From Candidatus Woesearchaeota archaeon (GTDB lineage Archaea; Nanobdellota; Nanobdellia; UBA10117), in assembly GCA_964619325.1 (NCBI GenBank), contig CAZUEL010000002.1, forward strand, positions 8,276-40,275: DNA of 32,000 bases, written 5' to 3'. Made by a program: the position numbers and the translations under genes. The notes beneath the pieces were generated by a model that saw nothing but the letters and a program-made list of their open reading frames with translations, did not search any database and was not told the DNA's origin. This document shows, piece by piece, positions 12,464-20,851 of this stretch; within the stretch, counting starts at the first letter, position 1; each line of letters begins with the position of its first letter.

Positions 12464-13849
12464 CTAAACTTTTTTCCATCTCGTCCCGCCGTCCTGCAGG
12501 TCTTCCAGCAAAATTCCTTTTCCTTTCAGCTCGTTTCTGATTCTGTCCGAAGTTTTCCAGTCTTTGGATTCCCTTGCCTGCTCGCGTTCCTTTATGAGTT
12601 TCATAAGTTCGGCTGGAAGTTTTTCTTCTTTAATGTGTTTCAAATTTAATCCTAACACATTATCCGCATCAAGAATAAATTTATAAACTTTTTTTGCTGC
12701 TGCGGAGCTTAGTTTATTTGCAGCTATTGATTTATTTACCACAGACATAAGATCAAAAATTACTGCGAGCGCGCCCGCGATGTTAAAGTCGTCGTCCATC
12801 GCTGCCTCAAACTTGTCTTTCGCTTTTGAAATTATTGTATTAACCTTTTCACCGGCTTTTGCACTAACATTTTGCAGTTTCAGAACAAAATCAACGAACT
12901 TTTGGTAAACTGCGTTTGTATTTCTCAAATTCTCTTCCGAGTAGTTGATTGGCTGGCGGTAATGCGTTGCCGCGAAGAATAATCTCAAGACCTGCGGCGA
13001 ATATTTTGCCAGCGCGTCTCGGATTGTTACAAAGTTTCCTAATGATTTTGACATCTTCTCGCCATTGACCATTAAAAACTCATTGTGCATCCAGTAATTC
13101 ACGAGCGGCTTTTTTCCGGAGACAGCTTCTATCTGCGCGATCTCGCACTCGTGATGCGGGAAAATCAAGTCTATGCCGCCGCCGTGGATGTCGTACTGCG
13201 GGCCAAAGAATCTTTCTGTAATAGCTGTGTCTTCGATGTGCCAGCCAGGCCTGCCGGCCCCAAAGGGCGAGGGCCAGAACGGCTCGCCTTCTTTATGGCA
13301 TTTCCAGAGAGAAAAGTCACCGGGATTTCTCTTCTGCGGGTTCTGTTCAACTCGGTGTTCCTTCAGCTGCTCAGGATTTTGGCGGGATAGCTTGCCATAA
13401 TCTTTGAACTTTGAAATATCAAAGTAAATGCCATCGTCAATCTGGTAGGCGAAGCCTTTCTTCATCAGTCTTTGTATTTGGTGGGTTATTTCTTTTATGT
13501 TGTCTGAGGCACGGACATATTTGCTGACTGAAATAACATTTAGTGACTTCATATCTTGGTAGTATGTATTTTCAAATCTTTTTGCTAATCTTGCTGGTAC
13601 TTCTTTTTTTTCATTTGCACGTTTAATTATTTTATCATCTATATCTGTAATGTTTTGCACGTAATTTAGTTTGTAGCCCTTCCACTTCAGATAGCGGGCG
13701 ACGATGTCAAAATTTATGTAACTCCTTGCGTGACCGATGTGCGCATAGTCATAAACAGTCGGCCCGCACACAAACATTTTTACTATCTTGCCTCGCGGGA
13801 CAAACTTCTTTTTCTTTCGGCTGAGCGTATCATATATTTGCAAAGTCAT
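12464..13849 (-). CDS. cysS: cysteinyl-tRNA synthetase
   Basis: HIGHARSY (HIGH) and KMSKSLGN (KMSKS) motifs; 461 aa. Confidence 0.95.
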   Translation of the reverse strand: MTLQIYDTLSRKKKKFVPRGKIVKMFVCGPTVYDYAHIGHARSYINFDIVARYLKWKGYKLNYVQNITDIDDKIIKRANEKKEVPARLAKRFENTYYQDMKSLNVISVSKYVRASDNIKEITHQIQRLMKKGFAYQIDDGIYFDISKFKDYGKLSRQNPEQLKEHRVEQNPQKRNPGDFSLWKCHKEGEPFWPSPFGAGRPGWHIEDTAITERFFGPQYDIHGGGIDLIFPHHECEIAQIEAVSGKKPLVNYWMHNEFLMVNGEKMSKSLGNFVTIRDALAKYSPQVLRLFFAATHYRQPINYSEENLRNTNAVYQKFVDFVLKLQNVSAKAGEKVNTIISKAKDKFEAAMDDDFNIAGALAVIFDLMSVVNKSIAANKLSSAAAKKVYKFILDADNVLGLNLKHIKEEKLPAELMKLIKEREQARESKDWKTSDRIRNELKGKGILLEDLQDGGTRWKKV

Positions 13850-14321
13850 TGTTAACTATCCCTCCTTGATATCTTGCTTGGTAAACTATTTTATTATTAA
13901 CACTTATTTTTTCTTTGCCATTGAATTCTTTTATTTTTCCGTTCCACTTGTTTTCATATTTCCAGCCTGCAAATTCTGCGGATTCGAAAATACTTGGGCC
14001 GCGATACGGTGCATCTTTCGGCATTTGCATAAGCGCTGTTTTGAGGAATTTCAAAAATAATTTATAATCTTCTCTGCCTTTGTAGCGCCCGCGATAAGTC
14101 ATAGACCAGATTGGAACGTCTTTAAACCAAACAACTTCAAAGCCCTGGAACGGCTCGCCACCAACATACTGATCAACGTAGCGCCAGTCACCTGATTCTG
14201 ATTTTATTAATTTGAGTTTTGGAAATGGATTTGTTTCTACAACGTCCTCTTTTGCCCAGCTTTCTGATAGTGCTGAAAACAAAAAGTCTGCAATTTGTTT
14301 TTCACTTACCATTTCAATCAT
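13830..14321 (-). CDS. conserved hypothetical protein (possibly DUF5680-like)
   Basis: 163 aa. GDWRYVDQYVGGEPFQGFEVVW..WSMTYRG recalls DUF5680 from memory only. 4-nt overlap with the upstream gene and 20-nt overlap with cysS. Confidence 0.65.
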   Translation of the reverse strand: MIEMVSEKQIADFLFSALSESWAKEDVVETNPFPKLKLIKSESGDWRYVDQYVGGEPFQGFEVVWFKDVPIWSMTYRGRYKGREDYKLFLKFLKTALMQMPKDAPYRGPSIFESAEFAGWKYENKWNGKIKEFNGKEKISVNNKIVYQARYQGGIVNNDFANI

Positions 14322-14926
14322 TCTATTTTTCTTACTTTATTATTTAATACTATAAGAGCCTGCCTGCCTGTTAATCGCTTAACTTCGTATTTTGTATTCG
14401 CCTCAGCTTCATCTATGATTTTTTTAAATTTGGCTGCATAGTGTGCAGTAACTATAAACGGGACAATGTTGAGGGCTGTTAAATCTTTCAGGCCAACTAT
14501 GTTTCTGTCAGCATGTTTCCACGCAGCAGCTTCGATGGTTGGGCAGACTATGTAGCTGCCGGCGCTGACGCCGACATATAATTTATTTCTTCTGACAAAA
14601 CTTTTAATCCATTTATCAAAACCTGTTTTTTTCAGTCTATCTAAAATATAAAATGCATTTCCGCCGCACGAATAAAATACATCAAAATTTGTATATTTTT
14701 TAGCATTAATTCTCATACTTATGTCTGCTTCAATTATGTTTTGTCTTTTAACGCCTAATTTAATCAAACTTTTTCTAAGTGCTTTTACGCGGCCAAGCCG
14801 CCCTCTTAATTTAGCAGTATGCATTATCAAAACTTTGTTTTCAGAGATGGGCTTGTCTAGCAATACGAGAAATGCATTCTTAATTTTTTTTGTTGTCAGT
14901 CCTTTTGAGGTCAGCAATAGTTTCAT
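14318..14926 (-). CDS. S51-family peptidase (dipeptidase E-like)
   Basis: 202 aa with GVSAGS nucleophile motif and GGNAFYIL. No TATA at the -22 position. Confidence 0.75.
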   Translation of the reverse strand: MKLLLTSKGLTTKKIKNAFLVLLDKPISENKVLIMHTAKLRGRLGRVKALRKSLIKLGVKRQNIIEADISMRINAKKYTNFDVFYSCGGNAFYILDRLKKTGFDKWIKSFVRRNKLYVGVSAGSYIVCPTIEAAAWKHADRNIVGLKDLTALNIVPFIVTAHYAAKFKKIIDEAEANTKYEVKRLTGRQALIVLNNKVRKIE

Positions 14927-14940
14927 CTTTCAGCTTTATG

Positions 14941-15269
14941 GAGCGGGGTAAGTGAGTTGCACACTTCTCTTCCGCTCTCGGACCCGCAGGGGGCTCTGCC
15001 CCCTTCAGGTGGACGCTCACCCTGACAAACAAAACCAAAGGTTTTGTTATACAGCAAAACTTCGTTTTGCTTGTACCCCCGGCGCCATCTTCGATGGCGC
15101 GAAGGAACCACGAGGCGTCCCAGCACATATCCCGAACCTGCAAAGTTGCATCAAACTTTGTTTGATGCGACGACTTCTTTCTTTGGATGCCCGGGAGCCT
15201 TTCTTTCCGTCAGAAGAAAGAAAGGCTGCCGCTGCAGGCGGACGCATAGCTGATCTGCCAACCCCGCTT
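14941..15269 (-). ncRNA. unassigned structured RNA (~330 nt): either a stable ncRNA or a structured 5' leader
   Basis: Non-coding gap, about 55% GC by hand count. Terminal helix pairs 15261-15268 with 14942-14949. Six near-perfect hairpins. The consensus promoter predicts a TSS at 15269. Confidence 0.55.
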
Positions 15270-15290
15270 AATTTAGCGACTGGCTCTAAC

Positions 15291-15304
15291 TTTAAATAGG
15301 TTTT
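15291..15304 (-). promoter_or_regulatory. BRE/TATA promoter (aaaacctatttaaa) for the structured RNA
   Basis: 14-nt identity with the map promoter at 19923-19936. The map spacing (22 nt) places the TSS at 15269, the first base of the terminal helix. Confidence 0.6.
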
Positions 15305-15655
15305 CTAGGCACCACATCCGCTACCACGGAGAGATTCGCCTTTCACTAATACCTCCTTCAAAAGTGCCACCAGGCCTTCCTGCTTGCCGACCTGCCAGCC
15401 TGCAGTTAAACTTTGTAGTTCAGTTGGGTCGCGATAGATCCCGTGTTGTATGGATGCCGGGCTTTCCGCGCTAACACTAACTAATGTGCTCTCGCCGCGA
15501 AAGACAACATTTGGCCCGAGCACTGTTCTACTATCGTACCAAAGCTGCAAGCTTCCAGCAATCGTACGCCAAGGCGTAGCGGTTGTTACGTGCCAGCTGT
15601 CAAATTTTCCGGCTATGCCGCCAGCTTTTTCTAGTTTGTATGTTTCATTTTCCAT
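15305..15655 (-). CDS. hypothetical 116-aa protein
   Basis: ATG 15655 (MENETYKLEKAGG...). No family recognised. GC-richer than its neighbours. Overlaps the wHTH ORF by 11 nt. Confidence 0.55.
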   Translation of the reverse strand: MENETYKLEKAGGIAGKFDSWHVTTATPWRTIAGSLQLWYDSRTVLGPNVVFRGESTLVSVSAESPASIQHGIYRDPTELQSLTAGWQVGKQEGLVALLKEVLVKGESLRGSGCGA

Positions 15656-15806
15656 TTTCAATCCTCCCGTAAGTCTTTTTACGAGTATCAATCCAATCAC
15701 GTCGTTCAGAAATCAGCCCTTGCTTCAGAAGCCAGCCTAGTGCGTATCGAATAGTTCTTTCAGAATAATCTGACCTTAGCTGCAGCTCTGCTTGGGAGGC
15801 TGGCAA
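15645..15806 (-). CDS. small winged-helix DNA-binding protein (start uncertain)
   Basis: My own translation: ...SDYSERTIRYALGWLLKQGLISERRDWIDTRKKTYGRIENGK, typical of a wHTH recognition helix plus wing. The frame is open from 15869 but has no ATG or GTG; the only standard start is TTG 15806. Confidence 0.4.
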   Translation of the reverse strand: MPASQAELQLRSDYSERTIRYALGWLLKQGLISERRDWIDTRKKTYGRIENGK

Positions 15807-19921: not shown

Positions 19922-19938
19922 AAAAACCTATTTAAATG
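19922..19938. promoter_or_regulatory. bidirectional promoter with a single palindromic TATA (atttaaat)
   Basis: tttaaa at 19931-19936 lies 22 nt from map ATG 19958 and 24 nt from the divergent ATG 19907. Confidence 0.6.
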
Positions 19939-19957: not shown

Positions 19958-20851
19958 ATGTACTCCAAATCTGAACTCGACAAACTGATGAAGGCAGGCC
20001 AGATAGCAGCGAAAGCCCGCGAATACGGAAAAACCCTGGTGAAAGAGGGCGCTTCCGTTCTGGAGATCGCAGATAAAATAGAGGCAAAGATGATTGAGCT
20101 GGGTGGCCAGCCTGCGTTCCCGACAGATGTTTCGATTAATGAGATGGCTGCACACCACTGCCCCGCGTTCGGCGAAAAAACAATTCTGAAAAAAGGTGAC
20201 CTGGTAAAACTAGATTTAGGCGCACACATTGATGGATACATGTCCGACACCGCGGTCACGATCTCGGTTGGAAATGTAAAGGAGGATTTACTGCTGATAA
20301 AAGCTGTCGAAGATGCACTTGCTGCTGCAATTAAATTAGCAACACCGGGCCGCGAAGTTTGGGAAATCGGCAAGGCCATCCAGGACACAATCACAAAGGC
20401 CGGCTTCGCTCCAATCCGGAACTTATCGGGCCACTTGATACAAAGGCATGACCTGCACTCGGACATCACAATTCCAAACACAAACAACCGGAACAAAACA
20501 AAACTGGAGGACGGCATGGTAATCGCAATCGAGCCATTCGCAACACCCGGCGACGGCTTGGTCAATGATGTCCGCGAGTTCCAAGTTTTCCGCGTTAAGA
20601 ACGTAAAAAATATGCGCACCAACCGCGACGTTTTAGAATTTGTTTTAGATACTTACGAAACAATGCCGTTCTGCGCACGCTGGCTCATCAAAAAGTTTGG
20701 CGTGCTGAAAACCAATCTCGCTCTGAAGGAAATGGTTGCGAAAGGGATTCTGCACGAGTACACTGGCCTCAAAGAAATTTCAGAAAAAAACGCAGCGCAG
20801 GCCGAACATACTATCATCATCGGCCAGACACCGGTTGTTACAACAGCTTAG
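19958..20851 (+). CDS. map: methionine aminopeptidase, type 2 (archaeal)
   Basis: 297 aa. FPTDVSINEMAAHH, DLGAHIDGYMSDTA, GHLIQRHDLH, IEPFAT and AQAEHTIII, plus the type-2 helical insert. Confidence 0.95.
   Translation: MYSKSELDKLMKAGQIAAKAREYGKTLVKEGASVLEIADKIEAKMIELGGQPAFPTDVSINEMAAHHCPAFGEKTILKKGDLVKLDLGAHIDGYMSDTAVTISVGNVKEDLLLIKAVEDALAAAIKLATPGREVWEIGKAIQDTITKAGFAPIRNLSGHLIQRHDLHSDITIPNTNNRNKTKLEDGMVIAIEPFATPGDGLVNDVREFQVFRVKNVKNMRTNRDVLEFVLDTYETMPFCARWLIKKFGVLKTNLALKEMVAKGILHEYTGLKEISEKNAAQAEHTIIIGQTPVVTTA

Follow-up and report, generated by a model that had tools for sequence, protein, structure and literature searches.

A tRNA-Cys(GCA) gene split at position 37/38 by a 255-nt structured intron in a DPANN archaeon

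The tRNA-Trp gene of Euryarchaeota carries an intron of about 65–105 nucleotides (nt) that houses a box C/D guide RNA. For archaeal tRNA introns in general, a 2014 review gives a range of 11–129 nt with medians of 12–25 nt, and lists as an exception the tRNA-Trp intron at 65 nt, the host of a box C/D RNA (PMC4090602). Disrupted tRNA genes have also been described in ARMAN and DPANN archaea, with short introns (e.g. 13 or 25 nt), often at non-canonical positions, with relaxed splice sites, and in forms that default gene finders miss; both papers state the expectation that DPANN genomes contain further disrupted tRNA genes still to be detected (PMC3239211, PMC5829648). Here we analyse a 32-kb stretch of contig CAZUEL010000002.1 from a Candidatus Woesearchaeota archaeon (hereafter the window, meaning the whole stretch of DNA that was analysed). 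On its minus strand lies a region that a first-pass annotation, made from the sequence alone, had described as an unassigned, GC-rich, multi-hairpin RNA of about 330 nt with its own promoter. We identify this region, with a probability of roughly 0.93, as the tRNA-Cys(GCA) gene of a DPANN archaeon, split at position 37/38 by an intron of 255 nt.

The locus is an extreme member of a well-known class, archaeal tRNA genes with a 37/38 intron, and not a new kind of system. Its intron occupies the same position as the bulge-helix-bulge (BHB) introns processed by the endonuclease EndA, and most relatives show the same architecture of bulge and 4-bp helix. It differs from those introns in length (255 nt here and 76–165 nt in relatives, which makes the window intron about twice as long as the quoted 11–129-nt range allows), in having a conserved multi-helix core of its own, and in lacking, in the window, the canonical 3' bulge and helix. 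Like the tRNA-Trp intron, it is a long, conserved and structured 37/38 intron of one particular tRNA that is kept across a lineage; unlike it, the host is tRNA-Cys, a C box is absent from all 13 introns of the family, and a guide function is not evident. The disrupted ARMAN and DPANN genes come from the same superphylum and share the relaxed splice sites and the failure of default finders, whereas here a single, very long intron sits at the canonical position. We found no paper on tRNA introns this long in DPANN archaea, in a literature search that was limited and does not prove novelty.

When introns were allowed, ARAGORN made a single tRNA call on the two strands of the window, c[14939,15267], a tRNA-Cys(gca) with a 255-nt intron; the same search made no call on 300 shuffles of the region. 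The gene is composed as follows (window positions).

14939–15267, minus strand: whole tRNA-Cys(GCA) gene with its intron and the encoded CCA, 329 nt, mature tRNA 74 nt (ARAGORN)
15232–15267, minus strand: exon 1, made up of GCGGGGU (5' strand of the acceptor stem), the D arm GCA(G)-AUCAGCU(A)-UGC, UCCGC (5' strand of the anticodon stem) and the loop CU-GCA-G
15235–15233, minus strand: anticodon GCA, within exon 1
14977–15231, minus strand: intron, 255 nt, canonical position 37/38
14939–14976, minus strand: exon 2, with (first part) A38, anticodon stem 3' strand GCGGA and variable loop AGAG, and (second part) T arm AAGUG-UGCAACU-CACUU, acceptor strand ACCCCGC, U73 and encoded CCA

Excision of the intron restores a continuous tRNA with a 7-bp acceptor stem, a D arm, 5-bp anticodon and T stems and 7-nt loops. 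The first-pass annotation had drawn an 8-bp helix between the ends of its RNA; both strands (AGCGGGGU/ACCCCGCU) are present in the sequence, and we now read this terminal helix as the 7-bp acceptor stem GCGGGGU/ACCCCGC, followed by U and CCA. Directly 5' of the acceptor 3' strand is a 5-bp stem with a 7-nt loop (AAGUG-UGCAACU-CACUU), and the 5' strand of the 5-bp anticodon stem UCCGC/GCGGA runs into CU-GCA-G. The anticodon GCA is accompanied by U33 and a purine at position 37, in the form CU-GCA-G^A (the caret marking the splice point) in the window and in 20 of 21 relatives, with A37 in L093 (loci are cited by L numbers throughout). The discriminator is U73 in all 21 sequences, to which the window adds an encoded CCA; U73 is the classical, major identity element for cysteinyl-tRNA synthetase (CysRS).

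Relatives were sought by searching the adjacent CysRS (12464–13849) against one genome per species. The best matches, which point to a DPANN archaeon, were a groundwater metagenome-assembled genome (MAG) named 'Nanobdellati archaeon' (L001), at 87% identity, and a 'Candidatus Woesearchaeota' MAG (L002), at 77%. In each of them a homologue of the RNA is likewise found between a TATA-like element and the peptidase S51 gene, in a shorter form (about 180 and 225 nt versus 329 nt in the window); only the ends and part of the interior could be aligned, and most of the six hairpins of the window are absent there. ARAGORN with introns allowed reported tRNA-Cys in each, the intron being 104 nt long in L001 and 151 nt in L002. 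A metagenome scan with a degenerate exon-1 pattern gave 27 loci, about 15 of which hold an intronless tRNA-Cys(GCA) near-identical to the joined exons of the window (e.g. L085, GCGGGGTTGGCAGATCAGCTATGCATCCGCCTGCAGAGCGGAATAGAAGGGTGCAATTCCCTTACCCCGCT); window exon 1 aligns to such intronless genes, L085 included, without a gap. At the remaining loci an insert of 14, 76, 78, 88, 91, 104, 122, 153 or 165 nt occurs at the same point, and in an alignment of intron-bearing with intronless genes the whole window insert falls between G37 and A38. Counted over all sources, fifteen loci besides the window have an intron of 14–165 nt at this site. Two further syntenic contigs, found through peptidase S51 homologues, keep the order promoter, tRNA-Cys, peptidase: L108 (91-nt intron) and L109 (intronless). 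When the Rfam tRNA model was applied to four intronless loci, L085, L100 and L107 scored 48–50 bits (50.1 bits for L085) against a gathering score of 29, and the tRNA of L109 was not reported at the gathering threshold. The 91-nt-intron genes of L088 and L108 gave no Rfam tRNA match, as was the case for the window.

We examined covariation of the cloverleaf over 21 distinct spliced or intronless sequences and 20 pairs. Across these, 99.5% of cells were paired, double (compensatory) changes were present at 9 of the 20 pairs, and the covariation score was 0.37, as compared with 0.145 in shuffles, none of 500 of which reached the observed value. Control alignments in which the partner was slid by 1–3 columns were paired at 39–60%. 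The T stem gives an example of compensation, AAGUG/CACUU in the window and AAGGG/CCCUU in relatives.

The placement of the promoter relative to the tRNA is conserved as well.

15291–15304, minus strand: BRE/TATA-like archaeal promoter AAAACCTATTTAAA, its last base 24 nt before G1

The motif noted in the first-pass annotation, AAAACCTATTTAAA, occurs exactly twice in the window: at 15304–15291 (minus) and at 19923–19936 (plus), where it lies 22 nt before the ATG of an ORF (open reading frame) starting at 19958. With up to 2 mismatches, the window contains 5 matches versus 0.8 expected. The same or a similar motif (TATTTAAA, TATTTAAG, TTTTTAAA) stands 23–24 nt upstream of G1 in L108, L002 and L001, measured, as in the window, from the end of the TATA-like 8-mer. 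Applying the 22-nt spacing of the second copy predicts a start at 15269 and hence a 2-nt leader, and typical archaeal promoter spacing would permit a start at G1 itself; transcription would begin from the 15304–15291 element about 0–2 nt from G1. Leaderless tRNA transcription was reportedly described in Nanoarchaeum equitans by Randau et al. in 2008. The window gene resembles that case in having its promoter at a fixed distance with a predicted start at or within 2 nt of G1, and differs in that this start is derived from spacing and that the distance is longer in a relative. At that relative, L109 (700–835), an intronless tRNA-Cys is accompanied by the same promoter motif and peptidase S51, and its promoter-to-G1 distance is about 20 nt longer. 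This spacing implies a processed 5' leader in at least some relatives, and thus a lineage that is not uniformly leaderless.

Gene identity, exon and intron borders, homology with intronless and short-intron genes, cloverleaf covariation and promoter position are established by these data. Four sets of observations nevertheless weigh against the assignment to tRNA-Cys. The first is that general searches do not report the gene. Rfam at gathering thresholds returned no match over the whole window; an Rfam search of 14850–15350 at E≤10 returned chance-level matches only (STnc280, mir-512, snoRNAs, preQ1, OxyS); and a default tRNA scan found no tRNA in the window, a false negative due to the intron. 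The first-pass annotation had held that a confident cmscan match to a known family would make the RNA an ordinary one, and none was obtained in the window. Rfam and default tRNA finders miss the gene because a 255-nt intron cannot be bridged. A tRNA-Cys gene in this DPANN lineage is therefore invisible to the routine searches run, and genome reports could wrongly list tRNA-Cys as missing or split, in keeping with a 2018 survey of DPANN tRNAs that already suspected undetected disrupted genes (PMC5829648).

The second set concerns the D and T loops, which make this an atypical tRNA lacking the full set of G18 G19 and U54 U55 C56. Its D loop (AUCAGCUA) has A at the G18 equivalent and no GG doublet at 18–19, and in its T loop, UGCAACU, G55 replaces U55; U54, C56, A58 and the G53–C61 pair are retained. 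The two deviating nucleotides covary perfectly in the 21 sequences, with A or C at 18 accompanying G55 in 15 and G18 accompanying U55 in 6.

15251 and 14954, minus strand: covarying D-loop nucleotide 18 equivalent and T-loop nucleotide 55 (alignment columns 17 and 53)

This pattern suggests that the contact between the D and T loops seems to have been replaced and not lost, and intronless genes to which Rfam gives tRNA scores show the same features. A third point is one of scope: our view is the 32-kb window, and a possible second tRNA-Cys gene elsewhere in the genome would lie outside it.

The fourth set concerns the splice sites. Nine of 13 homologues show the textbook arrangement, in which the anticodon stem is followed by a bulge of 3 nt in the 3' strand (UU^A, CG^A or CA^A) and the 4-bp helix CUGC/GCAG; their 5' site lies two nucleotides into an unpaired AG^N, and the cuts follow the second nucleotide of the bulge. 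Most homologues have a weak outer helix (h'), and the window has none. The canonical hBHBh' motif, in which a 4-bp helix separates two 3-nt bulges, is missing from the window, where the 3' splice site is outside a 3-nt bulge; the motif of the window is either relaxed or dependent on a fold other than those recovered. There, the partner of CUGC is UCCG, with 2 of 4 pairs formed, and the best alternative, CUGC/GCGG, leaves a bulge of 8 nt in the window and 6 nt in L099, which shares the non-canonical 3' splice site. The last ~30 nt of both introns fold as an extended GC-rich hairpin, in the window ACCUG-A-AGGGGGC...GCCCCCU-G-CGGGU. The shared 3' end (window 14977–14990, with 15232–15237) reads as a GC hairpin, CUGCGG, 6–8 nt and AGCGG. 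AG is present at both borders of the window intron, and the cut can therefore move by up to 2 nt without altering the product. A permissive scan for internal h-B-H-B-h' motifs, as two-step nested splicing would require, gave many weak candidates, none of which regenerated the canonical motif, and we rejected that mechanism.

We infer that the window copy is spliced, because its exons are intact and covary, its promoter is conserved, L099 has the same intron end, and relaxed endonucleases have been published. Splicing endonucleases of DPANN archaea reportedly cleave relaxed motifs or go together with disrupted tRNA genes (PMC3239211, PMC5829648, PMC12397907). The intron would be excised by an archaeal splicing endonuclease and the exons joined by an RtcB-type ligase, which would yield a 74-nt tRNA with U73 and a genome-encoded CCA, together with a free, probably circular intron. 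The junction of exon 1 and exon 2 would read CUGCAG^AGCGGA, i.e. CCUGCAG^AGCGGAAG. The window and L099 introns, lacking the canonical BHB, would be useful natural test substrates for DPANN endonucleases of relaxed specificity.

The same splice-site evidence has to be weighed under a second account, in which growth of the intron, including the partial copy of exon 1 described below, destroyed the BHB, so that the transcript stays unspliced. The gene would then be disabled, the transcript would do no more than provide the peptidase S51, DUF5680 and cysS genes with a structured 5' leader, and tRNA-Cys would come from another locus. The window does lack the canonical 3' bulge and the central 4-bp helix that are present in 9 of 13 relatives; its intron does contain a degenerate copy of exon-1 nt 23–37; and the next ATG, 12 nt past the CCA, is without a promoter of its own. 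Yet the exons are intact and differ from those of relatives by compensatory changes only, and the promoter and its spacing are conserved. L099 combines the same 3' intron end with intact exons, so that the arrangement persists in at least two lineages. DPANN splicing endonucleases are reported to accept relaxed motifs (PMC3239211, PMC5829648), and one further source gives one gene per isoacceptor as usual in archaeal genomes (PMC4307357). We consider a disabled gene very improbable. A plain cis-regulatory leader of the peptidase S51 gene was dropped given the cloverleaf and the intronless copies ahead of cysS.

The first-pass annotation had seen an independent structured non-coding RNA (ncRNA) of about 330 nt that has its own promoter, acts at full length and possibly switches conformation. 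What it had described at the level of sequence was reproduced throughout. The gap it examined spans 378 nt (14927–15304), between the peptidase S51 gene (14318–14926, minus) and an upstream ORF (15305–15700); the G+C content of 14941–15269 is 181/329 nt (55%), as compared with 35% in the neighbouring peptidase gene and 45% in the whole window; and the promoter match to AAAACCTATTTAAA is exact. All six of its hairpins are present. A script recovered five of them, with 7, 9, 8, 9 and 13 bp, the last having been counted as 12 bp by eye, and the 10-bp hairpin with one bulge (15051–15074) was seen in predicted folds. Folding of the region is far above chance relative to shuffles (z = -7.1 for the minus strand and -7.7 for the plus strand), and the 255-nt intron alone has a minimum free energy of -118.5 kcal/mol (z = -7.4). 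A promoter-driven, highly structured, non-coding minus-strand gene with paired ends was correctly recognised. The gap, read in that annotation as holding no credible ORF, is crossed by ORFs of 115, 87 and 67 amino acids; the longest has no Pfam match, and relatives differ there by large indels. This 115-amino-acid ORF (14952–15299, plus) runs antisense across the whole tRNA gene and is a likely cause of a spurious 'hypothetical protein' in automatic annotation.

What did not survive is the reading of the RNA as unassigned: intron-aware ARAGORN, the intronless homologues and the covariation identify it as tRNA-Cys, and the hairpins as its intron. An independent ncRNA could still draw on the absence of an Rfam match, the strong fold z-scores, the promoter directly upstream and the alternative GGACGC/GCGUCC pairings. 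It would leave unexplained that a full tRNA-Cys cloverleaf with U73-CCA is formed by the ends together with the flanks, that relatives share the exons with no insert or with inserts of 14–165 nt, that most hairpins are missing in close relatives (CysRS 82–87% identical), and that covariation supports the tRNA arms; we regard it as scarcely credible. As for the proposed switch, the repeated 11-mer CAGGYGGACGC and the GCGTCC/GGACGC triple were both confirmed, and the alternative pairings exist on paper. They would join an intron segment either to an exon-1 segment or to the degenerate intron copy of that segment, and they have no comparative support, since only the window carries the part of the intron concerned. 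The chance that the RNA is a divergent DPANN RNase P or signal recognition particle (SRP) RNA unrecognised by the Rfam models is negligible, and the first-pass annotation had likewise missed the hallmarks of either and was right to set both aside. Both RNAs typically have a size of about 330 nt, high G+C and ends that pair with each other, but neither model appears at E≤10 in the 500-nt search, the tRNA-Cys assignment explains every conserved nucleotide, and the homologues shrink to 150–180 or 71 nt with the inner part gone entirely. Neither a catalytic core nor helices 5 and 8 of SRP could be dispensed with in this way, so that the intronless homologues already refute this reading. A P4-like pairing (AAAGG-U-G with CCCUU) considered in L001 and L002 was rejected, as the window CACUU covaries with the local T stem instead.

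The six hairpins and the high G+C thus belong to the intron of the tRNA-Cys gene, which divides into a conserved core and a lineage-specific 3' part.

15131–15231, minus strand: conserved intron core, with homologous segments in L001, L002, L081, L086, L093, L103 and others
15196–15227, minus strand: pyrimidine/purine hairpin of the core
15189–15195 with 15131–15137, minus strand: helix of the core
15174–15186, minus strand: single-stranded purine tract of the core, CCAAAGAAAGAAG
15148–15168, minus strand: hairpin of the core
14977–15130, minus strand: lineage-specific 3' part, a closed multi-hairpin domain followed by a GC hairpin
15082–15100, 15051–15074 and 15028–15048, minus strand: hairpins of the multi-hairpin domain, from predicted folds
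14988–15004, minus strand: GC hairpin following the multi-hairpin domain

The core was found in 10 of 13 introns, and the window intron belongs to a family of structured introns of 76–255 nt that share it. It opens with a hairpin composed of a 5' pyrimidine tract (Y; e.g. CCUUUCUUUC) and a 3' purine tract (R1). A second helix follows, enclosing a single-stranded purine tract (R2; AAAGAAAG), and the further elements are, in order, a hairpin that is mostly GUGC...GCAC, the sequence ACAAAAC, the 3' strand of the second helix, and a terminal GCAG that pairs with anticodon-loop nt 32–35 (CUGC). Variants of the second helix stay paired (GGAAACC/GGUUUCC, CUACGAAAC/GUUUCGUAG and UGGGAAUC/GAUUCCCA), and the window version, CCCGGGC/GUUCGGG, has two G-U pairs that are possible on the minus strand only. 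These compensatory changes were read directly from the sequences, as the MAFFT alignment of the core was too imprecise for formal pair counting. The Y, R1 and R2 tracts are kept in L001, L002, L081, L086, L088, L091, L093, L094, L097 and L103. R2 is often identical to R1 over 9–13 nt, and the two shift together between lineages (AAAGAAAGG, AAAGAAAGAAAC, GAAAAGAAAGAAA); Y may alternatively pair with R2, or there may be a tertiary contact.

Outside the core, extra hairpins are placed differently by lineage: at the tip of the first hairpin (L103, L002), inside the second helix (L093) or after it (window). Organisms whose CysRS is 82–87% identical to that of the window have introns of 91, 104, 104, 122, 165 or 255 nt, indicating that the intron changes fast, mainly by gain of hairpins, around stable exons. 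The apex of the first hairpin in L103 and L002 carries the same module, CCAGAG - hairpin - CUUGGCCAAG - hairpin - YUCUGG, in genes that otherwise belong to different exon/intron subtypes; it is possibly a mobile, modular extension of the intron. The window-specific ~150 nt (about 15130–14977) hold 4 of the 6 hairpins. We found no second copy of this segment in the window or in the 109 fetched loci, and a mobile element or repeat as its source was rejected on that ground. The sole resemblance lies in its final ~35 nt, which are similar to the end of the L099 intron. It contains a degenerate copy of exon-1 nt 23–37 plus the first 8 intron nt (GCGUCCACCUGAAGGGGGCAGAGCC versus GCGUCCGCCUGCAGCGGCAGCC; 15006–15030 versus 15224–15245), in which the anticodon GCA has become GAA. 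This copy accounts for the repeated 11-mer and suggests that the intron grew partly through internal duplication.

In a pair of otherwise diverged loci the intron is nearly unchanged. L081 (4569–4747) and L086 (737–915), and also L101, have a tRNA with a 104-nt intron that is 97.8% identical over 179 nt; the L081 and L086 introns differ at 4 positions (96% identity), and the flanking coding DNA is 65–70% identical. The CysRS genes that adjoin the L081 and L086 tRNAs are 82% and 44% identical to that of the window, respectively. A comparison of L081 with L001 gives the opposite picture: the exons are identical, the cysS DNA is 80% and the aligned tRNA region 77% identical, and the introns have diverged far more. 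The L081/L086 pattern points either to strong constraint on the intron or to the tRNA cassette, or cysS, having recently been transferred or converted. We think it unlikely, on balance, that the intron is a conserved modular RNA with a function of its own in this DPANN lineage. Leads in that direction may be found in the core kept in 10 of 13 introns, the compensatory helices, the L081/L086 identity and the deviating splice motif of the longest copies; candidate roles may include a stable circular RNA, or cis control of tRNA maturation or of what happens to the cysS mRNA downstream. A box C/D guide RNA was rejected, as a C box (RUGAUGA) is present in none of the 13 introns and CUGA occurs in 3 and is not conserved.

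Three protein-coding genes, whose reading frames overlap one another, follow the tRNA on the same strand.

14318–14926, minus strand: peptidase S51 (PF03575), its ATG 12 nt after the CCA
13830–14321, minus strand: DUF5680 (Pfam)
12464–13849, minus strand: CysRS, cysS (Pfam)

There is no space for a promoter between the CCA and the peptidase ATG, and the first T5 run on the minus strand is 653 nt downstream. As there is no terminator before the next gene, transcription probably continues into peptidase S51, DUF5680 and cysS, and tRNA-Cys and the three genes probably form one transcription unit driven by the AAAACCTATTTAAA promoter. Of 31 loci with this tRNA, 17 have cysS downstream of it and on its strand; in six of those 17 the distance from the tRNA to the start of cysS is about 10 nt, too short for a promoter and free of any T-run. 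This tight spacing suggests that the tRNA and its synthetase would be co-transcribed, and so co-expressed, from one promoter. Loci with tRNA-Cys linked to cysS include L086, L090, L093, L096, L101 and L103. The window, L001, L002, L088 and L108 have an intervening peptidase S51 gene between tRNA-Cys and cysS, either alone or together with DUF5680.

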